64,000 nt of DNA from an uncultured Bacteroidales bacterium (GTDB lineage Bacteria; Bacteroidota; Bacteroidia; Bacteroidales; FEN-979). The position numbers and the translations under genes were made by a program. The notes beneath the pieces were generated by a model. That model was not told the origin of the DNA. It ran no database searches and worked only from the letters and a program-made list of their open reading frames with translations. Within the stretch, counting starts at the first letter, position 1, and each line of letters opens with the position of its first letter. The stretch is taken from NCBI GenBank assembly GCA_903837605.1, contig CAILVF010000036.1:8186-72185 (forward strand), written 5' to 3'. Positions 6,235 to 64,000 of the stretch are shown here, one piece after another.

Positions 6235-7320
6235 TCACATCCTGTTTTTTTCAAGCAGTGCCGCCGCTGCAGTATACGGACTGATATTCCCCGCGATGAC
6301 TTCTTTTTCGTAATACGCAAGGGACTGGGCGATGTCTTTTCGGCCGTAGAAATCACGTTTTATAGCCTGGTCAATGGTTTCGGTAAGCACCTGCCTGAAT
6401 TGTTCTTTACGCTGAAATTCGAAAAATCCGTTTGCTTTCGTGGTTTCCCTGTAGTTTTCTATGTAAGTCCACACCGTTTCAATACCCATCCTGGCCCGGG
6501 CCGAGCAAAGGTCAACCACCGGGTTCCAGCCGCTTTCGGCAGGCGGATATAAGTGAAGTGCGTTCTTGTATTCAACCCTTGCGGCTTTTGCTTTATTGAC
6601 ATTATCTCCGTCGGCTTTGTTGATGAAGATCGCATCGGCCATTTCCATGATCCCGCGCTTGATACCCTGGAGTTCATCACCTGCGCCCGCAAGCATGAGT
6701 AAAAGGAAAAAATCAACCATAGACCTGACCGTCGTTTCAGACTGGCCCACACCAACGGTTTCAACCAGGATCACGTCAAACCCAGCCGCTTCGCAGAGGA
6801 TGATGGTTTCCCTTGTTTTACGGGCAACACCGCCCAGGGAACCGGCCGAAGGGGATGGCCTGATATATGCTTTCGGGTTGACAGCCAGCTCTTCCATCCT
6901 TGTTTTATCGCCGAGGATACTGCCTTTGGAGCGTGTGCTGCTGGGGTCGATGGCAAGAACCGCGATCTGGTGATCCTGAGAAGTGAGAAACATCCCAAGC
7001 GCTTCGATAAAGGTGCTTTTACCTACTCCAGGAACCCCCGTGATGCCGATGCGAATTGATTTCCCTGAAAAGGGGAGGCAGGCATTGATGATTTCCTGGG
7101 CTTTTTGCTGATGGGAATGAAGCGAGCTCTCGACCATGGTGATCGCTTTGCTGAGGACAGTGCGGTTGCCAGACCTGATGCCATGAACAAATTCTTCGGT
7201 GCTCAGCGACTGGGGACGTTTTGCTTTAAGTTTCCTCAGTGCATCAGCATTTACAGGGCCGGGTTGTTCAATCCCATCCATCACATTCAGGGCCGATTTA
7301 AATTCCTTTTTTGGGTTCAT
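6235..7320 (-). CDS. meaB: Methylmalonyl-CoA mutase-associated G-protein chaperone (MeaB/ArgK family GTPase)
   Basis: 361 aa. P-loop 'GITGVPGVGKSTFIEALG'. 'VLAIDPSS..GSILGDKTRM','ILVETVGVGQSE' and 'FINKADG' (NKxD) match the MeaB/ArgK G-motifs. Confidence 0.88.
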   Translation of the reverse strand: MNPKKEFKSALNVMDGIEQPGPVNADALRKLKAKRPQSLSTEEFVHGIRSGNRTVLSKAITMVESSLHSHQQKAQEIINACLPFSGKSIRIGITGVPGVGKSTFIEALGMFLTSQDHQIAVLAIDPSSTRSKGSILGDKTRMEELAVNPKAYIRPSPSAGSLGGVARKTRETIILCEAAGFDVILVETVGVGQSETTVRSMVDFFLLLMLAGAGDELQGIKRGIMEMADAIFINKADGDNVNKAKAARVEYKNALHLYPPAESGWNPVVDLCSARARMGIETVWTYIENYRETTKANGFFEFQRKEQFRQVLTETIDQAIKRDFYGRKDIAQSLAYYEKEVIAGNISPYTAAAALLEKNRM

Positions 7321-7345
7321 CTTCCTGCCGTCATTATGCCGTCGG

Positions 7346-7380
7346 TTATCCGTTATCCATTATCCGGCACCCGGTATCTT
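7346..7380. repeat. Period-7 tandem repeat, 3 good + 2 degenerate units (TTATCCG TTATCCA TTATCCG GCACCCG GTATCTT)
   Basis: Read directly from the sequence. Lies 26-60 nt upstream of the meaB start, on the opposite strand. Confidence 0.8.
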
Positions 7381-7485
7381 GTCTTGTCCTAAAGTAGCCA
7401 TCCGGATGACCGATGCCCAAAAGTACAGAAAACCCGTGAATTGAAATATTTCGCCCAATCCTTTTAACATTCCGGGGAAAATTTC

Positions 7486-7493
7486 TATCTTTG
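7486..7493 (+). promoter_or_regulatory. Bacteroidota-type -7 promoter box TATCTTTG (TAnnTTTG)
   Basis: Matches the TAnnTTTG consensus. Ends 12 nt upstream of the tRNA-Lys 5' end. Confidence 0.55.
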
Positions 7494-7504
7494 CACCCCC
7501 AAAC

Positions 7505-7577
7505 CTCTCCGTAGCTCAGTTGGTAGAGCAATTGACTCTTAATCAATGGGTCCCAGGTTCGAATCCTGGCGGGGAGA
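7505..7577 (+). tRNA. tRNA-Lys(CTT): tRNA-Lys (anticodon CTT)
   Basis: Cloverleaf folded by hand. Acceptor ctctccg/cggggag (one G-U). D arm gctc-agttggta-gagc. Anticodon loop ct-CTT-aa. T arm ccagg-ttcgaat-cctgg. Discriminator A. CCA not encoded. Confidence 0.93.
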
Positions 7578-7583
7578 CAAAGA

Positions 7584-7616
7584 AAAGCCCATTCACGCAG
7601 TGTTTGGGCTTTTTTC
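7584..7616 (+). terminator. Rho-independent terminator after tRNA-Lys
   Basis: Stem aaagccca/tgggcttt around a 12-nt loop (7592-7603), followed by a T-run (tttttt). Confidence 0.75.
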
Positions 7617-7651
7617 GTGTTCGGGCCGGAACCAGTTCCGGCCCGAACACG
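7616..7651. repeat. Perfect 17-bp-stem palindrome/hairpin (cgtgttcgggccggaac-ca-gttccggcccgaacacg)
   Basis: Arms verified base by base as exact reverse complements with a 2-nt loop. A further hairpin, gcccgc-gaa-gcgggc, lies at 7665-7679. Confidence 0.85.
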
Positions 7652-7731
7652 GGAGAAGACCAAAGCCCGCGAAGCGGGCAGGGCTTTCCTTTAGCAACGA
7701 CCTTTTTTATGGATCATGAGCTCTGCGAACT

Positions 7732-13817: not shown

Positions 13818-16112
13818 ATGAACAACTACCTGAAATTCCTGGTTTTATCTGTGATCATTTTTACCTGCGGATGCGGCCACAAAAAAGATGCACAGATCAC
13901 AAACCTTCTGATGCTGAAGGGAGGGAAGACTTTTGCAGTTCCCACAGGAACAGCCGCCGACCAGTTCGTGCTGAAGAAATTTCCTGATGCAAAAATAGAA
14001 TATTACAACAGTGTGCTTGATTGTTCCATGGCTGTGAAGGATGGGAAAGCCGATGCGGCAGTCTATGACCTTCCTGTTCTGAAAAATATTGCTGCAAAAA
14101 ATGGGGGCCTCATCGTTTTAGATGAACTGCTGTTTGATGATCAGTACGGATTTGCGGTCCGCCCCGACGACAAAGCCCTGAAATCTGCAATGGACGAAGT
14201 CCTTGCCCGGTTAAAATCAGACGGCACATACCGGGAGATGCAGAAACGCTGGTTCCCCGATAAGGGGAACCCCGGCCCCATGCCTGAAATCAAATTCACA
14301 AATGAAAAAGGCGTGCTCAGATTTGGAACTGCAGCTGTAACAGAACCTATGTCCTATGTCGACAGCAGCAAGCAGGTTGTCGGATTCGATATCGAATATG
14401 CCTCCTACATTGCTAAGAAATCAGGGAAAGTCCTGGAGATAGTCAACATGGAATTCGGGGCCATGATCCCTGCCCTGATTTCCGGCAAGGTCGATATGAT
14501 CGGCGCCGGACTGTCTATCACGGAAGAAAGGGCAAAGAAAGTCCTTTTTTCTCAAAGCTACTATCCAAGCGGTATTGCTGCGGTAGTGAAAGATAACCGA
14601 GAAAAGAAAAAAGCAACAACCGAATCCAAAATGAAAACCCTCGCCGATATAAAAAACAGGCGGATAGGGGTGTTGCTTGGAAGTATCCATGACGCTTATG
14701 CAACGAAACAGTTCCCCAATGCAACGATCTTTCAGTATCCGAATCTCTCCGATCTGCTGTTTGGCCTGAACTCTGATAAAGTGGATGTGGCATTCACTGA
14801 CCAGACATCGGTTAAGGATATCTTCAGTAAAAATCCCGGGCTTGGGATCCTGTCCAAAAACATATTTACGGTTAACATCGCAGCAGGATTTGACAAGGAT
14901 AATGATCAGCTGAGAAAACAGTTCAACGCTTTTCTTAAGGAGATCAGGTCGAACGGTGTTTACAAGGACCTGGTCGACCGCTGGATGGATAAAGGGCTGG
15001 AAGAAATGCCCGGGATTAAAGGAACGAACATCAATGGCCAGCTCAAAGTCGGCGTTGTAAGTGACCTTGGAATGCCTTCCACAATAATGAAAAACGGCCG
15101 TTTGATTGGTTTTGACATTGAACTGGCCCAGCGGTTTGCAGCATATATCCACAAGGAATTCGTCCCGGTCGACCTGCAGTTCGGGAGCCTGCTTGCATCG
15201 GTCTCGACCAATAAGATTGATATCATCATGAGTTCTTTGATGGTAACCGATGAACGCAAAAAACAGATTGATTTTTCCGACCCGTATTATGAATCAGGCG
15301 TCAGCATCATTGCAAAGAAAAATAACATTGATAGTAAAACCCTTTCGGGATCAGGAACTCCTGATGAATATCCTGAAGATGAAAATGGTAATGGTAATGT
15401 CTCTTTCTTCAAAGCCGTTTCAAACAGTTTCTACAACAACATCATCCTTGAAAAAAGGTATTTGAGTATCCTTGACGGGTTAAAAGTCACTATGCTCATT
15501 TCAATCCTTGCTGCAATACTGGGAACGCTGATCGGCTCGCTGGTATGCTACATGAGGATGTCTAAAAGCAGGTTCCTTTCACGATCAGCAAGTGTGTATA
15601 TCTCCATATTGCGCGGGACACCTGTATTGGTTCTGCTGATGATCATATATTATGTTGTTTTTGCTTCGGTGAATATCAATCCGGTTGTCGTGGCCGTAAT
15701 TGCATTCTCCCTGAATTTCGGCGCTTATGTATCGGAGATGTTCAGGACTTCTATAGAAAGCATAGATAAAGGGCAGAAGGAGGCTGCAATTGCAGGAGGC
15801 TTCTCTAAAATCCAGACATTCACTTACATTATCCTCCCCCAGGCTTTGCGCCATATCCTTCCGGTCTATAAAGGGGAATTTATTTCGCTCCTCAAAATGA
15901 CCTCCATTGTAGGGTATATAGCAGTCCAGGATCTTACCAAGGCGAGCGATATTATCCGCAGCCGAACGTTTGACGCTTTTTTCCCATTGATCATGGTTGC
16001 GGTATTGTATTTATGCATTGCATGGTTGTTTACCTGGGCCCTTGGTTTGATCGAGATTTCGGTGGATCCTAAAAGAAGACGCATAAGGAGAACAGAGGAG
16101 GCAAAGCCATGA
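13818..16112 (+). CDS. Amino-acid ABC importer, substrate-binding domains fused to the permease (GlnP/HisM-type TMD); non-canonical SBD half-domain order
   Basis: 764 aa. Signal/lipobox 'IIFTCGC'. SBP_bac_3-like segments cover aa ~27-146 (C-terminal two-thirds only), ~165-390 (complete) and ~408-503 (N-terminal part only). Gly/Glu/Asn linker. The permease carries the EAA-type loop '[28 protein letters not shown]'. Confidence 0.85.
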
Positions 16113-42658: not shown

Positions 42659-43531
42659 CTGCTTTTCCAGCCAGTCGTACCATTCTTTCATCCCTTCCCC
42701 GGTCTTTGCCGACATCAGGATGAACTCCAGTTTCGGGTTTAGTTGCTGTGCATATCTCTTTGCCGTTTCCACACTGAAATCAACATAGGGCAGGAGGTCG
42801 GTTTTATTGATGATGCATAGATCCGACGACTGGAACATATAAGGGTACTTTATGGGTTTGTCATCCCCCTCGGTCACACTGATCACAACCACCCTTTTCT
42901 TTTCCCCCAGGTCAAACATCGCAGGACATACAAGGTTCCCCACATTCTCGATGAACAGGACGGAATGGTTTTCGACAGGAAGTTTTTTTAGGGCCAGCTG
43001 TATCATGTTTGCATCGAGATGGCATCCGTTTCCGGTATTGATCTGGATCGCGGGAGCCCCCGATTTCTCAATCCTGTCGGCATCCCTCGCCGTTTGCTGA
43101 TCACCCTCGATTACAAAGATCTTCCTTTTTGAGACAAGTGCCTGAATGGTTTTTTCAAGTATACTGGTCTTGCCGGATCCGGGGGAACTTACCAGGTTCA
43201 GGCAAAGCACTTCCTTCCCTTCAAAATAACCACGGTTCCTCTCGGCCAGGCGGTTGTTTTCCGACAGGATGTCGATGTTGAGAGGGATCTCTTTTTTTTC
43301 GTGATGATCGTGATGGCCGTGATGATCGTGATCATGGGGATGCCCGTGGACATGAGGGTGGGAATGCTTGTGGCCATCGTGCTCATGCTCATGGTAATGT
43401 TCGTGAGCATCATGTTTATGGGTGTGTGGGTGAGCGGGGCCTTCGTGTTCGTGGGAATGTTCGTGATGATTATGATGAGGATCATGTATTTTGAAGTCAT
43501 CCGGTTTTCCGCATCCGCAGGTTTCGCACAT
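42653..43531 (-). CDS. hypB: Hydrogenase nickel-insertion GTPase HypB with His-rich N-terminal domain
   Basis: 'CETCGCG' N-terminal Cys motif. ~30 His in the first ~85 aa. P-loop 'SSPGSGKTS'. 'NKTDL'. Confidence 0.93.
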   Translation of the reverse strand: MCETCGCGKPDDFKIHDPHHNHHEHSHEHEGPAHPHTHKHDAHEHYHEHEHDGHKHSHPHVHGHPHDHDHHGHHDHHEKKEIPLNIDILSENNRLAERNRGYFEGKEVLCLNLVSSPGSGKTSILEKTIQALVSKRKIFVIEGDQQTARDADRIEKSGAPAIQINTGNGCHLDANMIQLALKKLPVENHSVLFIENVGNLVCPAMFDLGEKKRVVVISVTEGDDKPIKYPYMFQSSDLCIINKTDLLPYVDFSVETAKRYAQQLNPKLEFILMSAKTGEGMKEWYDWLEKQL

Positions 43532-50998: not shown

Positions 50999-51034
50999 AT
51001 CGTGAATTCTATATTTTCAAATTTCGCTATTTCT

Positions 51035-55820: not shown

Positions 55821-56894
55821 TTACCGCTTTTTTTTCTTTGCCCTCAGATATTGTTTCGGCCATTCTGTAATGTCTCCCAGATCATCCGCAGCATGCAGCG
55901 GGAAATACGGATCGCGAAGGAATTCACGGGCCATCAGGATGATGTCGGCCTGGCCTTGTGCGAGTATGCTTTCGGCCTGGACCGCAGTGGTGATCAGCCC
56001 AACGGCACCGGTAAGGATACCGGTTTCTTTCCTGACGGTTTCGGCCAGTTTTACCTGGTAGCCGGGCTCGATCGTAATACTCACACCGGGGATAATGCCT
56101 CCCGAAGAACAGTCCATCAGGTCGACCCCGGCTTCTTTGAGTATTCGCACCAGGGCCACCGAGTCGGCGACAGTCCATCCGCCATCCGCCCAGTCGGTGG
56201 CAGAGATCCTCACAAATAATAAATATTCAGGAGGGATCTCAGCCCTGATCCCGTCGACGATCTCAAGCAGGAGACGGATGCGGTTTTCAAATGAACCCCC
56301 GTATTCGTCGTTCCGCTTATTGCATAAAGGAGAGAGGAATTCATGCAGGAGGTAGCCGTGTGCCGCATGGATTTCGATGATCCGGAAGCCCGCTTCAACC
56401 GCCCGTTTTGCTGCTGCTATAAAGTCCCGGCGGACTTTGGCAATGCCTTCTGTGCTTAAGGTTGCCGGAACTGCAGTGTCGGCTGAAAAAGGAATTGAAC
56501 CGGGAGCAACAGGTTCCCATCCTCCCTCTGAAGGCGCCAGCAAACGCTCCCCTTTCCATGGGGCATCATAACTTGCCTTACGCCCTGCATGTGCCAGCTG
56601 TATGCCGGGAACAGAACCCTGCTCACTGATAAATGAGGTTATTTTCTTAAGAAAAGGGATATGCTCGTCTTTCCATATGCCTATATCGGCCGTGGAAATA
56701 CGGCCTTCGGGTGAAACAGCGGTGGCCTCGGAAATGACAGCTGCAGCTCCTCCAACGGCCCGGCTGCCAAGGTGTACCAGGTGCCAGTCATTGGCAAATC
56801 CGTCCTTACCTGAATACTGGCACATGGGTGAAACAACCAGTCGGTTTTTCAATTGGGTGCCCCGTATTTTTATTGTGCTGAAAAGCGTGCTCAT
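55821..56894 (-). CDS. Old Yellow Enzyme family NADPH dehydrogenase (YqjM/NamA-like)
   Basis: 357 aa. 'VVSPMCQYS','LAHAGRK','EIHAAHGYLLHEFLSP' and 'MAREFLRDPY'. Confidence 0.88.
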   Translation of the reverse strand: MSTLFSTIKIRGTQLKNRLVVSPMCQYSGKDGFANDWHLVHLGSRAVGGAAAVISEATAVSPEGRISTADIGIWKDEHIPFLKKITSFISEQGSVPGIQLAHAGRKASYDAPWKGERLLAPSEGGWEPVAPGSIPFSADTAVPATLSTEGIAKVRRDFIAAAKRAVEAGFRIIEIHAAHGYLLHEFLSPLCNKRNDEYGGSFENRIRLLLEIVDGIRAEIPPEYLLFVRISATDWADGGWTVADSVALVRILKEAGVDLMDCSSGGIIPGVSITIEPGYQVKLAETVRKETGILTGAVGLITTAVQAESILAQGQADIILMAREFLRDPYFPLHAADDLGDITEWPKQYLRAKKKKR

Positions 56895-58393: not shown

Positions 58394-58723
58394 AAGCATT
58401 CTTGCTTTTATCCGTTAAACGGATCTTTTTATTGAGCCGTGGGCTCTCTGAACCGCATCAGGGTCTCCCCCGATGTGCACAAAACTTACATTTTGTAACC
58501 TGTTTCTTTTTTTCTTTTTGTCAGATTAATTCTGGTACAAATGTAATCCTGCCGGAACCGTTTGTCAAGGGGTTTTAACATTTTTTAACTCTTGGGATAT
58601 CAACAGCCTCCTGTTCAATTTTTTCAGGTTCTTCCGGAATAAAGTGTTCAAATAATGAGTATATCCTCAAACATGTAAGCAGGATATTTTTCCTCCTTCT
58701 TTTGGTTTTATTTAGAATTATTA

Positions 58724-58731
58724 TAAATTTG
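58724..58731 (+). promoter_or_regulatory. Bacteroidota-type -7 box TAAATTTG
   Basis: TAnnTTTG match 19 nt upstream of the scoA start. Confidence 0.45.
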
Positions 58732-58749
58732 TGAAAGATTCTTTATCAC

Positions 58750-59442
58750 ATGAACAAAGTAGTACAAAACGCCCGGGAAGCGATACTCGGAATTGAAAGC
58801 AACATGACCCTGATGCTGGGTGGTTTCGGCCTCTGCGGCATACCCGAAAACTGTATCTCGGCCCTTGCTGCCTCTGACATTACAGGACTTACCTGTATAT
58901 CAAACAATGCCGGGGTCGACGGATTTGGCCTTGGCATGCTCCTGCGCAAACACCAGATCAGGAAAATGATATCCTCATATGTAGGAGAGAACAAGGAATT
59001 TGAACGGCAACTGCTAAGCGGCGAACTGGAAGTCGAGCTGATCCCCCAGGGAACCCTTGCTGAACGTTGCCGGGCCGGGGGGGCCGGGATCCCTGCCTTT
59101 TACGTCCCTGCAGGTTACGGAACTGAAGTGGCTGAGGGTAAACCGGTGAGGAAATTCGAAGGCAAGATGTATCTCGAAGAGCAATGGCTCAGGGCCGACT
59201 TCGCGATCGTCAAAGCCTGGAAAGGCGATACCAGCGGGAACCTTGTATACAGGAACGTTGCCAACAATTTCAACCAGTCTATGGCCATGGCCGGCAGGAT
59301 CACTATTGCCGAAGTTGAGGAACTTGTCCCGGTAGGGAGCCTGGATCCCAACCATATCCATACCCCGGGTGTGTTTGTTCAAAGGATCTTCCAGGGAGTA
59401 AATTACGAGAAGAGAATAGAGTTTATGACGACCAGGGACTAA
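58750..59442 (+). CDS. scoA: 3-oxoacid (succinyl-CoA:acetoacetate) CoA-transferase subunit A
   Basis: 230 aa. 'MLGGFGLCGIPE' and 'GELEVELIPQGTLAER'. Confidence 0.9.
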   Translation: MNKVVQNAREAILGIESNMTLMLGGFGLCGIPENCISALAASDITGLTCISNNAGVDGFGLGMLLRKHQIRKMISSYVGENKEFERQLLSGELEVELIPQGTLAERCRAGGAGIPAFYVPAGYGTEVAEGKPVRKFEGKMYLEEQWLRADFAIVKAWKGDTSGNLVYRNVANNFNQSMAMAGRITIAEVEELVPVGSLDPNHIHTPGVFVQRIFQGVNYEKRIEFMTTRD

Positions 59443-59443
59443 C

Positions 59444-59478
59444 GTCACTCATGGCTCATGCCTCATGGCACATGGCTC
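59444..59478. repeat. Period-7 tandem repeat, 5 units (GTCACTC ATGGCTC ATGCCTC ATGGCAC ATGGCTC)
   Basis: Read directly from the sequence. Begins 2 nt after the scoA stop codon, in the scoA-scoB spacer. Confidence 0.85.
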
Positions 59479-59513
59479 AACTTAATTAACAATAGTCAAC
59501 GATAATCATTATT

Positions 59514-60170
59514 ATGGCTTTAGATAAAACCGGAATAGCAAAACGCATTGCAAGGGAGCTGCGCGACGGGTATTATGTGAACCTGGGAATCGGGATCCCC
59601 ACCCTGGTAGCGAATTATGTCCCCAAAGGCATGCAGATCATCCTTCAATCTGAAAACGGGCTGCTTGGTATAGGCCCTTTCCCCTCCAAAGATGAAGTTG
59701 ATCCGGACCTTATCAATGCAGGTAAACAAACCATAACGGCCTTGCCTGGGGCTGCATTTTTCGACTCCTCCATGAGTTTTGCAATGATACGGGGCGGGCA
59801 TGTCGACCTTACCGTGCTCGGGGCTTTTGAAGTTTCTGAAACCGGGGATATTGCCAGCTGGAAAATCCCGGGAAAACTGGTCAAGGGAATGGGTGGCGCA
59901 ATGGACCTCGTTGCATCGGCCCGCAATATCATCGTGGCTATGATGCATACCAACCCCCAGGGCGAATCGAAACTGCTGAAGAAATGTACACTGCCGCTTA
60001 CCGGATTAGGAGTGGTGAAACGTATAGTCACCGACCTCGCAGTGCTGGATGTTACCCCCGATGGGTTCAGGCTCCTCGAACGGGCGCCGGGCGTGAGTAT
60101 CGAACAGATCAAAGCTGCCACCGAAGGCCGCCTTATCATCGAAGGCGACATTCCCGAAATTATCGTTTAA
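59514..60170 (+). CDS. scoB: 3-oxoacid CoA-transferase subunit B
   Basis: 218 aa with catalytic-Glu motif 'LQSENGLLG' (SENG). Confidence 0.9.
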
Positions 60171-60193
60171 ACTCACCATCTCACAATTGCAAT

Positions 60194-61354
60194 ATGCCCC
60201 ACTATTACACCCTCGGACAAATCCTACCTAAACGGCATACCGTCTTTCGCAGGCCCGACGGGGGGTTATATGCTGAACAGCTGGTCTCAACCGAAGGGTT
60301 CTCAGATTTGTATTCCCTGGCTTACCATTGCAGCCAGCCCACCCAGGTTCTTAAGATCGACCCTGCTTATCCTGCAGCCCCTTTGATTGCCGACCAGGAC
60401 AATATGCAGCACAGGCTTTTTAAAGGTTTTGACCTGGCCCGGGCCGATGACTATCTCGAATCGCGCATCCCTGTTCTGGTGAATGCCGACTGCCAGATCA
60501 GCCTTGCAGCTCCCCGCCTTTCCATGAATGAATATTTCTATAAAAATTCGGGGGCGGATGAGATGGTGTTTGTTCACATGGGCGGAGGAGTCCTCAGGAC
60601 AATGTACGGCAATATAACCTTCAAACCCGGCGACCACCTTGTAATCCCACGAGGAGTCATTTACCAGTTCAGGTTCTCATCCGCCGACAACAGGCTTTTT
60701 ATTGTTGAATCCCCTCAGCCGCTCAGGTTCCCTAAAAGGTATATGAACAAGGAAGGGCAACTGCTGGAGCATGCTCCTTTTTATGAACGCGATATCCGCA
60801 AACCGTCGGAACTTGAAACCCATGAAGAAAAAGGGGACTTCCTCGTTAAGATCAAACGCGGAGGGAAAATCTGGCCATACCATCATGCGACCCACCCCTT
60901 TGATTTGATTGGCTGGGACGGATGTCATTATCCTTATGCCCTGTCGATCCACGATTTCGAGCCGATCACCGGCCGCCTCCACCAACCCCCGCCGGTACAC
61001 CAGACATTTGAAAACCAGGGCTTCGTGGTTTGCGCTTTCGTGCCCCGGCTGTATGATTACCATCCCCAGTCCATACCTGCTCCATACAACCACAGCAACG
61101 TGGATTCCGATGAGGTTCTGTATTACGTGGAAGGCGATTTCATGAGCCGGAACAATATTCAGCAGGGAAATCTCACTCTTCATCCCAAAGGCATTGTGCA
61201 TGGGCCACACCCGGGAGCAGTGGAACGAAGCATAGGAGCAAAAGAAACTAAAGAACTGGCGATCATGGTCGATACTTTCAAACCGCTTATGATCACACAG
61301 CAGGCTTTTACGATCGAAGATCCTGATTATTACCGGTCGTGGCTGGAAAAGTGA
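60194..61354 (+). CDS. hmgA: Homogentisate 1,2-dioxygenase (short bacterial type)
   Basis: 386 aa from 'MPHYYTLGQILPKRHT'. Cupin core with 'PYNHSNVDSDEVLYY' and 'LHPKGIVHGPHPG'. The ORF-track extension from 59984 overlaps scoB and is not used. Confidence 0.82.
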   Translation: MPHYYTLGQILPKRHTVFRRPDGGLYAEQLVSTEGFSDLYSLAYHCSQPTQVLKIDPAYPAAPLIADQDNMQHRLFKGFDLARADDYLESRIPVLVNADCQISLAAPRLSMNEYFYKNSGADEMVFVHMGGGVLRTMYGNITFKPGDHLVIPRGVIYQFRFSSADNRLFIVESPQPLRFPKRYMNKEGQLLEHAPFYERDIRKPSELETHEEKGDFLVKIKRGGKIWPYHHATHPFDLIGWDGCHYPYALSIHDFEPITGRLHQPPPVHQTFENQGFVVCAFVPRLYDYHPQSIPAPYNHSNVDSDEVLYYVEGDFMSRNNIQQGNLTLHPKGIVHGPHPGAVERSIGAKETKELAIMVDTFKPLMITQQAFTIEDPDYYRSWLEK

Positions 61355-61400
61355 TGCAGGATACAGGATGCAGGATGAGTCAAATCCTGTATCCCGCATC
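61353..61400 (+). terminator. 17-bp-stem hairpin built from heptamer repeats (TGCAGGA TACAGGA TGCAGGA ... inverted copies), overlapping the hmgA stop
   Basis: gatgcaggatacaggat (61353-61369) pairs with atcctgtatcccgcatc (61384-61400) with one mismatch and a 14-nt loop. The function (terminator, attenuator or mRNA stabiliser) is not determined. Confidence 0.6.
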
Positions 61401-61430
61401 TGATAATCATTAACCAATAACAATTAAAAT

Positions 61431-62525
61431 ATGCAAAATGATTTTCTACCGATAAACGGAACCGATTACGTCGAATTTTATGTGGGCAACGCCAGGCAGG
61501 CCGCTCATTATTACCAGTCGGCCTTCGGCTTTCAGCCTCTGGCTTATGCCGGGCTTGAAACCGGGCTCAAAGACCGTACTTCCTATGTGCTGAGGCAGGA
61601 TAAAATAACTTTCGTCCTCACCAGTTCAATGGTCCCAGGATCCATGATCTCGGAACACTGCAAACTGCATGGCGACGGCATTAAAGTGATTGCACTGTGG
61701 GTTGACGACGCACGGAAATCTTATGAGGAAACCGTGAAGCGGGGAGCGAAATCATATTTTGAACCTTATGCTTCCAGTGATGAACAGGGCGAGGTAGTGC
61801 TTTCAGGCATACATACCTATGGCGACACCGTGCATATTTTTGTTGAGAGGAAGAACTACAAAGGCGCTTTTCTTCCCGGTTTTACCGGGTGGGATCCTGT
61901 ATATAAACCTTCTTCAGTTGGATTAAGGTATGCTGATCACATTGTAGGCAATGTCGGTTGGGGTGAAATGGACACCTGGGTTGATTTTTATCATGAGGTG
62001 ATGGGATTCAACCAGCTGATCTCTTTCGACGACAACGATATTTCAACCGAATACACGGCCTTGATGAGCAAGGTAATGGCCAGCAGCAATATGTACATTA
62101 AATTCCCGATCAACGAGCCGGCTAAAGGCCTGAAGAAATCCCAGATAGAGGAATACCTTGATTTCTATCACGGTCCCGGCGCCCAGCATGTGGCTATGGC
62201 TACCGACAATATCATTGAAACCGTTATCGCCCTGAAAAGCCGGGGAGTTGAGTTTCTCAGGGTCCCTGACTCCTATTACGACACACTGCCTGACCGGGTC
62301 GGCAAGATCGATGAGGCCATGGCACCGATAAAGGAGCACGGGATCCTGGTCGACCGCGATGAAGAGGGCTACCTGCTGCAGATCTTCAGCAAGCCGGTTG
62401 AAGACAGGCCTACCGTATTTTACGAGATCATCCAGAGAAAAGGTGCAAAGTCCTTCGGCAAAGGCAATTTCAAGGCATTGTTCGAATCGATTGAGCTGGA
62501 GCAGGGCAGGCGCGGAACCTTATAA
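61431..62525 (+). CDS. hppD: 4-hydroxyphenylpyruvate dioxygenase
   Basis: 364 aa. 'VEFYVGNARQAAHYY' and 'AQHVAMATDNI'. C-terminal 'FYEIIQRKGAKSFGKGNFKALFESIE'. Confidence 0.92.
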   Translation: MQNDFLPINGTDYVEFYVGNARQAAHYYQSAFGFQPLAYAGLETGLKDRTSYVLRQDKITFVLTSSMVPGSMISEHCKLHGDGIKVIALWVDDARKSYEETVKRGAKSYFEPYASSDEQGEVVLSGIHTYGDTVHIFVERKNYKGAFLPGFTGWDPVYKPSSVGLRYADHIVGNVGWGEMDTWVDFYHEVMGFNQLISFDDNDISTEYTALMSKVMASSNMYIKFPINEPAKGLKKSQIEEYLDFYHGPGAQHVAMATDNIIETVIALKSRGVEFLRVPDSYYDTLPDRVGKIDEAMAPIKEHGILVDRDEEGYLLQIFSKPVEDRPTVFYEIIQRKGAKSFGKGNFKALFESIELEQGRRGTL

Positions 62526-62551
62526 AGATGCAAACGAAACTGCGATAAAGC

Positions 62552-63823
62552 ATGGATAACCTAAACGATCAGCATTTGAAATCCTGGCTCCCGTCGGAAG
62601 CTGGCAGCGATTTCCCGATACAGAATCTTCCCTTCGGGATATTCAGGAAAGGTGTGAGCTCCCCTCATGCGGCCACGCGCCTTGGAAATACGGTGATCGA
62701 CCTGTTTGCCCTGGCTGAACACGGGTTTCTTGACGGACTGGGAATCGACCCGGGGGTGTTCAACTATTCTTCCCTGAATCCCTTTATTGAGCTTGGAAAA
62801 CCCTATTGGCGTTCATTACGCAAGCAACTGGCCCTGCTTTTCGGTTCAGACAATACAGAAGCCTGCGGCAGGATCGGCAGCACGAATGATATACTTTACA
62901 ATGCAGCAGCGGTTCAAATGTTGATGCCCGTGAAGGTTGGTGATTATACCGACTTTTATTCCAGCCTTGAACACGCTACCAATGTGGGGTGCATGTTCCG
63001 CGATCCGGCTAATGCCTTGCTCCCGAACTGGAAACATCTCCCGGTAGGATACCACGGGCGGAGCTCATCCATTGTTGTTTCGGGAACTGCTATCCACCGT
63101 CCAAAAGGGCAAACAAAACCTCCCGATTCAGATACTCCTGTTTTCGGCCCTTCAAAGGAGCTGGATTTTGAACTGGAATTGGCTTTTATTACCGGGAAGA
63201 AAACCGCGCTTGGAACTTCAGTAAGCACGGCCGATGCCGAAGACCATATCTTCGGGATGCTGCTGTTCAACGACCTTTCGGCAAGGGACATTCAGCGATG
63301 GGAGTATGTTCCCCTGGGACCTTTCCTGTCAAAGAATTTCGGGTCGGTGGTCTCTCCCTGGATCGTGACCCTCGATGCCCTTGAACCGTTTCGTGTTCCC
63401 GGCCCTGCGCAGGATCCCGAAGTATTGCCCTACCTTCGGTTCAGCGGTTCTCATAATTTCGATATTCAGATGGAGGTGTTCATCCAGGCTGAAGGACAAA
63501 CTGAATTCAGGGTTTGCAGTTCAAACTATAAATACATGTATTGGAACCTTGCCCAGCAGCTGGCTCACCAAACGGTGAACGGCTGCAATATCAGGGTTGG
63601 CGATATGTATGCATCAGGAACGGTCAGTGGCCCAACCCCCGGTTCTTACGGATCGATGCTGGAGCTTGCCTGGAAAGGAACAAAACCAATAAAAATGCCC
63701 GATGGCAGCGAACGCAGCTTTATCAATGATAATGATTCGGTCATCATGAAAGGATATTGCGAAAAGCCCGGACTAAGGATTGGCTTCGGGGAAGTGGCAA
63801 CGAAGATACTTCCGGCATTGTAA
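62552..63823 (+). CDS. fahA: Fumarylacetoacetase
   Basis: 423 aa. N-terminal 'FPIQNLPFGIF'. 'DFELELAF','NDLSARDIQ.WEY.PLGPF' and 'GDMYASGTVSG'. Confidence 0.92.
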   Translation: MDNLNDQHLKSWLPSEAGSDFPIQNLPFGIFRKGVSSPHAATRLGNTVIDLFALAEHGFLDGLGIDPGVFNYSSLNPFIELGKPYWRSLRKQLALLFGSDNTEACGRIGSTNDILYNAAAVQMLMPVKVGDYTDFYSSLEHATNVGCMFRDPANALLPNWKHLPVGYHGRSSSIVVSGTAIHRPKGQTKPPDSDTPVFGPSKELDFELELAFITGKKTALGTSVSTADAEDHIFGMLLFNDLSARDIQRWEYVPLGPFLSKNFGSVVSPWIVTLDALEPFRVPGPAQDPEVLPYLRFSGSHNFDIQMEVFIQAEGQTEFRVCSSNYKYMYWNLAQQLAHQTVNGCNIRVGDMYASGTVSGPTPGSYGSMLELAWKGTKPIKMPDGSERSFINDNDSVIMKGYCEKPGLRIGFGEVATKILPAL

Positions 63824-63860
63824 ACAAAGAAAGGAACAATGACTCTTGAATCGAAATCCT

Positions 63861-63895
63861 GGTCATCGTTCACCAGTCACCAGTCACTGTTCACC
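63861..63895. repeat. Period-7 tandem repeat, 5 units (GGTCATC GTTCACC AGTCACC AGTCACT GTTCACC)
   Basis: Read directly from the sequence. Lies 38 nt after the fahA stop and 12 nt before the next ATG. Confidence 0.85.
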
Positions 63896-63906
63896 CCTAC
63901 ACAGAT

Positions 63907-64000
63907 ATGGAAAACAACAAAGAATACCTCCGCTTTGACCCAAAGGAACTCAGCATCCCTAAGCTGCAGGGACTTGTCCAGGCTGCTGTTGCCCCAAGAC
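63907..64000 (+). CDS. 5' end of a gene running out of the window (possibly a flavin-reductase-domain protein)
   Basis: 'MENNKEYLRFDPKELSIPKLQGLVQAAVAPR..'. The '..L.....V.PRP' pattern resembles the N-terminus of flavin reductase-like domains. Only 31 codons are visible. Confidence 0.35.
   Translation, partial: MENNKEYLRFDPKELSIPKLQGLVQAAVAPR

Follow-up and report, generated by a model that had tools for sequence, protein, structure and literature searches.

The stretch of DNA analysed here (the window) comprises 64,000 nucleotides from an uncultured Bacteroidales bacterium (contig CAILVF010000036.1). Near its 3' end it carries the catabolic operon scoA-scoB-hmgA-hppD-fahA, whose spacers (59443-63907) hold short head-to-tail arrays of heptanucleotides, and a further array of this kind lies upstream of meaB. 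Pfam bears out the names of all six genes. The arrays had been picked out in an original prediction made from the sequence alone. Their sequences read as quoted there, and Tandem Repeats Finder independently finds four period-7 arrays; however, the array upstream of meaB has three units only, since 7367-7380 is non-repeat sequence. The genes and arrays, together with an inverted partner of array 2, are as follows.

6235-7320, minus strand: meaB.
7346-7366, minus strand: array 4, three heptamers (TTATCCG TTATCCA TTATCCG; on the meaB sense strand GGATAAT GGATAAC GGATAAC). Tandem Repeats Finder gives 7345-7366, unit GTTATCC, period 7, 3.1 copies.
58750-59442: scoA.
59444-59478, plus strand: array 1, in the scoA-scoB spacer, five heptamers (GTCACTC ATGGCTC ATGCCTC ATGGCAC ATGGCTC; consensus CTCATGG or ATGGCTC). 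Tandem Repeats Finder gives 59448-59479, unit CTCATGG, period 7, 4.6 copies, score 50.
59514-60170: scoB.
60194-61354: hmgA.
61355-61375 as quoted in the original prediction: array 2, in the hmgA-hppD spacer (TGCAGGA TACAGGA TGCAGGA). Tandem Repeats Finder gives 61353-61377, plus strand, unit GATGCAG, period 7, 3.6 copies, score 43.
61384-61400, plus strand: inverted partner of array 2, about 2.4 complementary heptamers (ATCCTGT ATCCCGC ATC).
61431-62525: hppD.
62552-63823: fahA.
63861-63895, plus strand: array 3, in the spacer between fahA and a flavin-reductase gene, five degenerate heptamers (GGTCATC GTTCACC AGTCACC AGTCACT GTTCACC). Tandem Repeats Finder gives its perfect core as 63870-63887, TCACCAG, 2.6 copies.

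The arrays inside the operon lie close to stop codons. Array 1 starts 1 nt 3' of the scoA stop TAA (59440-59442), and array 3 begins 37 nt past the fahA stop codon and finishes 12 nt short of the next ATG. Starts 1-38 nt past a stop codon, as predicted, are therefore found for these two, but array 2 overlaps the hmgA stop TGA (61352-61354). Array 4, which had been placed in a meaB leader, does lie upstream of meaB and ends 25 nt 5' of its start codon; however, the spacer is divergent, between meaB on the minus strand and a tRNA-Lys gene (anticodon CTT, 7505-7578) on the plus strand. This tRNA gene sits in the long spacer that separates meaB from a DUF3089 gene, and a mechanically called open reading frame (ORF) at 7346-7663 on the minus strand is spurious, since both the tRNA gene and array 4 lie under it. 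The four window units have no evident common motif.

We scored arrays of all periods by a self-match scan (+1 for a match, -2 for a mismatch) with a score of at least 10 as the criterion. The window contains four period-7 arrays, with scores of 13, 11 and 11 for arrays 1, 3 and 4, and 0-1 arrays at each other period from 4 to 12. The mean over 100 second-order Markov shuffles is 0.09 per period, which gives a Poisson P(≥4) of ~2.5e-6; with a spacer-specific expectation taken from the relatives described below (1.05 per 192 kb, or ~0.02 for 3.5 kb), P is ~6e-9. The window has 37 spacers of at least 12 nt (3,537 nt in all), more than the roughly 29 implied by the original prediction, and none outside the four array-bearing ones scores above 5 at period 7, as that prediction had it. 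It had also seen no array within coding sequence, and this is confirmed: the only coding period-7 matches, at 14346-14360 and 56175-56190, are two-copy repeats with scores of 8-9, under the threshold of 10. The window arrays are thus a real, non-random class of intergenic period-7 repeats.

The period spectrum was then obtained from relatives. A scan with HppD over one genome per species gave 80 Bacteroidota loci, with a best match of 85% amino-acid identity, which indicates that the window's species is not among the representative genomes. A metagenome scan with HmgA gave 80 further loci (best 83%). All close relatives are Bacteroidota metagenome-assembled genomes; individual loci are referred to below by number (L001 and so on). 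From ~150 related Bacteroidota loci, 1,194 non-redundant spacers with a total length of 192 kb were scanned, with the following counts of arrays.

Period 5: observed 1, expected 0.7.
Period 6: observed 1, expected 0.6.
Period 7: observed 96, expected 1.05.
Period 8: observed 33, expected 0.9.
Period 9: observed 10, expected 0.35.
Period 10: observed 4, expected 0.6.
Period 11: observed 3, expected 0.75.
Period 12: observed 5, expected 0.55.

Over-representation is thus ~90-fold for period 7, 37-fold for 8 and 29-fold for 9, with no excess at periods 5 and 6 in these spacers. Period 7 makes up 96 of the 158 spacer arrays. The arrays are also concentrated outside genes: non-ORF sequence, 11% of the total, holds 117 of the 143 period-7 arrays in the relatives' loci, and arrays inside ORFs are mostly of period 6, 9 or 12. 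The comparison of period 7 with its neighbours, and of spacers with coding sequence, that the original prediction had proposed therefore comes out in its favour. Its description is to be amended in two respects. The arrays are not strictly heptameric, as genuine 8-mer and 9-mer arrays exist and both periods exceed expectation, and they are not tied to one catabolic cluster, as they occur genome-wide and lineage-wide in the relatives. About 6% of non-operon spacers carry an array over the sampled loci, and ~20% in array-rich genomes. The trait is lineage-wide, with a sharp lower bound at 7 nt. Several contigs of relatives begin or stop inside heptamer or octamer arrays (L009 1-75; L002 1-54; the 3' end of L149), which shows that arrays break short-read assemblies; array-rich genomes may hence be under-sampled. 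Some arrays in relatives are long and perfect, such as one of 21 GAAGTGG copies in L014.

In the closest relatives, nearly every spacer of the scoA-scoB-hmgA-hppD-fahA operon bears an array. L001 has arrays in all five operon spacers, and L003, L004, L026 and L088 have them in most; in L086 they are missing from the scoA-scoB spacer (20 nt) and the spacer 3' of fahA (12 nt). Absence from the orthologous spacers, which the original prediction had named as a result that would count against it, is thus not what is seen. The units themselves turn over. At scoA-scoB the unit is CTCATGG in the window, TTGTACA in L001 and AATCGTA in L003, L004 and L026, and L086 has no array. At hmgA-hppD, the orthologous array of L001 shares the window's unit (GATGCAG, period 7); a core RATGCA recurs with period 8 in L089 and L002 (GAATGCAG) and with period 9 in L003, L004, L026 and L088 (CAATGCAAA); and the unit is replaced by GAATTTC/GAATATT in L086, by TGGCGGAA in L005 and by TAGCGAT in L091. 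The spacer 3' of fahA in L001 holds CGTGAAC/CGTGACT units together with inverted GGATCAC units, and by eye the array 3 units of the window are the reverse complement of the family in the 5' arm of this L001 spacer.

Copy number differs between closely related strains. Between L095 and L096, which are 99.6% identical over 7.2 kb, the two hmgA-hppD arrays show length differences of seven units (49-50 nt) and two units (14 nt), and the remainder of the spacer is almost unchanged. L004 and L026 (89% identity) have units in common but differ in copy number. Such whole-unit differences are the signature of slipped-strand or unequal-exchange dynamics. The comparison between strains proposed in the original prediction hence shows whole units gained and lost in relatives, but not in the window's own arrays. 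Four other complete assemblies of the strain carry array 1 unchanged, and a fifth contig stops within the array. Since they are identical in independent assemblies of the strain, the window arrays are not assembly artefacts. Their 3-5 imperfect copies, their substitutions and their invariance are consistent with arrays that are old and decaying. One contig, L084 (1-1476; Logan SRR8496325), matches window 58448-59477 with 100% identity to the last base of array 1 and then continues into unrelated sequence with an unrelated ORF; the junction is a rearrangement breakpoint unless the assembly is chimeric at the repeat.

Gene context has no bearing on where arrays occur outside the operon. Their density there is 0.55/kb in convergent, 0.35/kb in co-directional and 0.51/kb in divergent spacers, and there is no tie to a downstream start codon or to an intercistronic position. 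A function specific to intercistronic sites was rejected on this ground. Within co-directional spacers, ~41 of the 76 arrays start no more than 10 nt from the upstream stop codon, and 22 overlap the stop, in agreement with the position relative to stop codons on which the original prediction had asked for a check. The purine content of the sense strand is 0.545, with 41 arrays purine-rich (more than one half) and 23 pyrimidine-rich, and a single unit can be found in both orientations, for example in relatives; a strand bias at the RNA level, considered as an explanation, is thus weak. Outside the operon the arrays have a G+C content of 26%, compared with 35% in the rest of the spacers.

Structure is found at one window array. 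An inverted-repeat search pairs array 2 with its partner at 61384-61400 in the hmgA-hppD spacer as a hairpin with arms of 17 nt, 94% complementary and 14 nt apart. The RNA fold of 61350-61432 reaches -26.4 kcal/mol (z = -4.9), with none of 200 shuffles as good. The other three window arrays do not fold significantly, with z = -0.64 (array 1), -0.74 (array 3) and 0.02 (array 4). L001 has a matching architecture at hmgA-hppD (-37.6 kcal/mol, z = -8.4), and its spacer 3' of fahA also folds very strongly (-45.1 kcal/mol, z = -5.8). Single arrays fold worse than shuffles, as seen in L088 (z = +1.95) and L004 (z = +0.63). A general explanation of the arrays as hairpins or terminators was rejected, as hmgA-hppD alone folds significantly and the terminator scan gave no terminator-like site at any array. 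The window hairpin is followed by TGATAATCATT and has no T-run, so that it does not qualify as an intrinsic terminator. In L086 (7165-7260) the hmgA-hppD hairpin is made of GAATTTC/GAATATT and their complement and is followed by T8, so that by sequence it resembles an intrinsic terminator or an attenuator within the operon. No known RNA family accounts for the arrays: an Rfam 15 scan of the whole window at gathering thresholds gave only the tRNA, at 7505-7577. Periodic NAG-N4 sites of the kind bound by HutP were also considered but set aside as a general rule, since by eye AG recurs every 7 nt only in array 2 and over some of array 3.

At the sequence TGATG, an ATG shares bases with the stop codon of hmgA and opens a 19-codon ORF running through the hairpin (window 61352-61413, plus strand; L001 7342-7403), with the products MQDTGCRMSQILYPASDNH in the window and MQDAGCRIKQILHPGSCIQ in L001, each ending at a stop codon. 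The ORF might encode a leader or coupling peptide, or might exist simply because the repeat lacks stop codons. As an explanation of array 2 it was not retained, its length being insufficient for testing and its sequence confounded by the hairpin.

The repeat class to which the arrays belong is already known. Heptanucleotides are the dominant class of long simple-sequence repeats (LSSRs) in many bacteria, for which polymerase slippage has been proposed (Mrazek, Guo and Shah 2007, as reported in PMC4679880 and PMC4692102). Mismatch repair becomes less efficient once loops exceed 3 nt (Huang and Mrazek 2014, PMC4060949). The 2007 top ten of genomes for repeats of 5-11 nt, as summarised in PMC4679880, included no Bacteroidota. 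The arrays described here resemble LSSRs in consisting of head-to-tail units within the 5-11 nt range with 7 the commonest, in exceeding expectation (2.6-4.6 copies per array in the window; 4 arrays against 0.09), in being intergenic (all four in the window), in tolerating multiples of 3 in genes, in a copy number that varies in relatives, and in their patchy phylogenetic distribution. Polymorphism in unit number, another LSSR property, is seen in L095/L096 (7 and 2 units), whereas the window arrays are the same in all assemblies of the strain. They differ from LSSRs in that here there is no excess at 5-6 nt, arrays abut the stop codon and one catabolic operon is enriched.

Cyanobacterial STRR heptamers are said to have been described by Mazel in 1990. 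Like them, the window arrays are tandem 7-bp units in spacers, including spacers within operons, and some form hairpins from an inverted array. STRR 7-bp repeats form hairpins between cistrons such as hupS-hupL, and these have been proposed to stabilise the transcript or to couple translation (PMC2670836). The comparison with STRR made in the original prediction is therefore apt, and the hmgA-hppD hairpin of the window is a direct structural analogue of the one at hupS-hupL. However, STRR of filamentous cyanobacteria consist of a few fixed units, each repeated at a great many loci of a single genome, whereas the window has four unrelated units, each present once in 64 kb, and the relatives are Bacteroidota; reuse of a unit (GAATATY) is seen in some of these (L004, L026, L088). 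The arrays are hence not STRR members by unit reuse or by taxon. Our best reading is that they are a Bacteroidota counterpart of STRR.

Heptamers had been seen in this phylum before, although the original prediction was aware of no equivalent described for Bacteroidota. TAACTGA direct repeats occur in Beggiatoaceae, Cyanobacteria and five Bacteroidetes, with a bias to the forward orientation upstream of start codons (MacGregor 2015, PMC4679880), and the same source reports 'other heptamer direct repeats' in spacers of Gramella, Aequorivita and Elizabethkingia, with contigs that end in such repeats. The arrays here share with TAACTGA repeats their intergenic position, their 2-6 copies and their frequent proximity to start or stop codons. 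TAACTGA repeats have one unit sequence and a forward bias, whereas the present units are diverse and their orientation bias is weak. Membership of the TAACTGA family was rejected: there is no exact dimer in 165 loci (L001-L165), and the window has only 2-mismatch matches, which include array 4. Array 4 comes closest: read on the meaB strand (7342-7366, minus), it gives TAATGGA TAACGGA TAACCGA, one mismatch per unit from TAACTGA, a resemblance that may be coincidence. The G-rich heptamers GGGAATC and GGGGAYT of Xanthomonas and Nostoc lie between matching genes in related species, sometimes as inverted pairs (Rehm 2015, PMC4692102). They are similar to the present arrays in their extensive variation of length and sequence and in inverted pairs able to form stem-loops; they differ in being G-rich and quadruplex-forming, whereas the window units have no G-tracts and the relatives' arrays are AT-rich. 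New here are the breadth of such repeats in environmental Bacteroidota, the sharp 7-9 nt spectrum and the persistence of arrays in this operon.

We favour the explanation that the arrays are heptanucleotide LSSRs, made by slippage in unconstrained spacer DNA and passively transcribed, and put its probability at roughly 60%. Among the roles offered in the original prediction, which also included sites for an RNA- or single-stranded-DNA-binding protein and elements of mRNA processing or stability, slipped-strand by-products are the best supported, by the whole-unit differences between strains, the turnover of units, the lack of a preference for one spacer type and the weak strand bias. According to this explanation, a 7-base segment of a spacer would be duplicated head to tail, and slipped-strand mispairing or unequal exchange at replication would then lengthen or shorten the array, always by whole units. 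The process would be active over a large part of the environmental Bacteroidota, with units of 7 nt, less often of 8-9 and not of 5-6, and the preference for 7 nt might, as the literature proposes, have its basis in the replisome or in mismatch repair. Arrays would persist only in DNA that encodes nothing else, where they would be neutral. They would adjoin stop codons because in tight operon spacers the free DNA is the stretch between the stop and the initiation region of the next gene. They would be transcribed passively within the polycistronic mRNA. Single arrays would give unstructured RNA, and an array beside its own inverted copy would give a long, register-tolerant hairpin, as at hmgA-hppD, which may secondarily stabilise or insulate the upstream cistron.

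Several observations weigh against slippage as the whole account. Within a locus, a spacer of the operon is 3.7 times likelier to carry an array of period 7-9 than a spacer elsewhere (Mantel-Haenszel, stratified by locus, p = 2e-7), and in the window itself arrays occupy three of the five operon spacers but only one of the 32 others; the 3.7-fold figure is inflated by shared ancestry, as orthologous arrays are not independent. The RATGCA core at hmgA-hppD is found in at least eight species, with flanking enzymes 77-85% identical, at periods 7, 8 and 9, and this persistence is longer than expected of neutral sequence. The core may owe its survival to a unit that is held in place by the constrained region of the stop codon and from which the array is seeded again and again. 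The units GAATATY, AATCGTA and ATTTCGC reappear at several unrelated spacers, within and across genomes, which independent slippage does not predict. An inverted partner array lies within 150 nt of 23 of the 96 arrays, compared with 2 in a reverse-only control. The hairpin architecture at hmgA-hppD is kept in the window, L001 and L086, though the L086 unit differs, which hints at selection for structure. Finally, look-ups by the exact ScoA and FahA proteins, covering 5-6 assemblies, gave no copy-number difference in the window arrays.

Much of this evidence bears on whether the arrays are instead selected RNA elements in operons, with single arrays as platforms for a single-strand-binding protein that takes ~7 nt per domain (cold-shock-domain or S1 OB-fold) and inverted pairs as stabilising or insulating hairpins, the whole tuning re-initiation or relative cistron stability in a phylum without Shine-Dalgarno pairing. 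The operon enrichment, the retained RATGCA core, the sharing of some units among spacers and genomes, and a hairpin kept despite different sequence all agree with such a role, as does the crowding of co-directional arrays at or over the upstream stop; that single arrays fold worse than shuffles suggests an open RNA, CspB binds as one protein per heptamer (PMC4679880), and the proposals made for the hupS/hupL hairpins of STRR (PMC2670836) are of the same kind. However, convergent spacers are equally array-rich even though no start codon lies downstream in them, units occur in both orientations with little strand bias, and they are highly diverse, the four in the window lacking a common motif. 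Arrays are also lost unreplaced in a close relative (L086, at scoA-scoB and 3' of fahA), and three of the four in the window have no significant structure. We therefore regard selected RNA elements as a possible but doubtful explanation. A stronger form, in which the arrays would be phylum-wide selected intercistronic elements and each 7-9 nt unit would dock one OB-fold domain (cold-shock or S1), is unlikely. In it, an array past the stop would hold the mRNA open and an inverted pair would lock it into a hairpin, thereby setting re-initiation and cistron stability; it would account for the operon enrichment, the persistence of RATGCA and the lower limit of 7 nt, which slippage alone does not.

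The reuse of units raises the question of a mobile or recombination-spread element (MITE- or REP-like), composed of an array and its inverted copy, of which the arrays would be dispersed copies or relics, and those of the window decayed half-elements. In the 14-kb locus L004, GAATATY arrays of either orientation occupy as many as nine positions, and they occur in seven loci of different species; a quarter of arrays are inverted pairs, and contigs of relatives break at arrays. Against this, no common flanks, target duplication or transposase were seen, no two window arrays have a unit in common, arrays stay at orthologous positions as their units drift, which indicates evolution in place rather than insertion, and strains differ by whole units, not by the presence or absence of an element. 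We consider a mobile origin very unlikely. Least probable of all, in our view, is that the arrays are contingency (phase-variation) loci or operator repeats for a transcription factor, whose unit number would switch the tyrosine-catabolic genes or meaB. Against this, a 7-bp period sets successive sites on different faces of duplex DNA. The window arrays are short (3-5 imperfect copies) and invariant across the assemblies of the strain, unlike the long, near-perfect and variable arrays of phase-variable loci; three of the four lie inside an operon, past stop codons and not at promoters, and no sigma-70-like promoter coincides with them in a scan that does not cover Bacteroidota promoters. On the other side, unit number does differ between strains in relatives, array 4 is in a divergent promoter region 25 nt 5' of meaB, and intergenic heptamers are described in PMC12721329 as driving phase variation in Haemophilus.

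If slippage is the right explanation, the value of the finding is modest: it documents in many environmental Bacteroidota a trait known from cyanobacteria, Xanthomonas and Beggiatoaceae. The arrays would still be ready-made markers for strain typing, as well as points at which short-read assemblies break, and the sharp spectrum (nothing at 5-6, ~90-fold at 7, falling at 8-9) bears on why 7 nt is favoured as a slippage unit in bacteria. If the arrays are selected, for which the enrichment in the operon and the conservation of both the core and the hairpin architecture speak, they would add a new level of regulation within operons in a phylum with atypical translation initiation.

Some minor features of the window may be added. 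The scoB-hmgA spacer, which has no array in the window, contains a putative decayed relic.

60174-60186, plus strand: CTCACCA TCTCAC, best period 8, score 5, at chance level alone.

It is listed because the orthologous spacer in L001, L003, L086 and L090 has TTTCRCT / TTTCACCA arrays. Together with a second chance-level period-8 trace at 51022-51034 (plus strand), it resembles the ATTTCGCT / TTTCACCA unit family, of which clear arrays are present in L001, L003 and L090; the two traces read ATTTCGCTATTTC (51022-51034) and CTCACCATCTCAC (60174-60186) and may be decayed relics. The gene 3' of fahA (window 63908-64000; L166 3761-4414) belongs to the flavin-reductase family (PF01613), and in L166 it is followed after a 16-nt spacer by another gene, which indicates that the catabolic cluster runs on beyond the window. 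A period-9 repeat at 43299-43332 (minus strand; TCGTGATGA, 3.8 copies) lies within an ORF and is an ordinary in-frame coding repeat, whose His/Asp-rich product HPHDHDHHGHHDHH is possibly a metal-binding tail.

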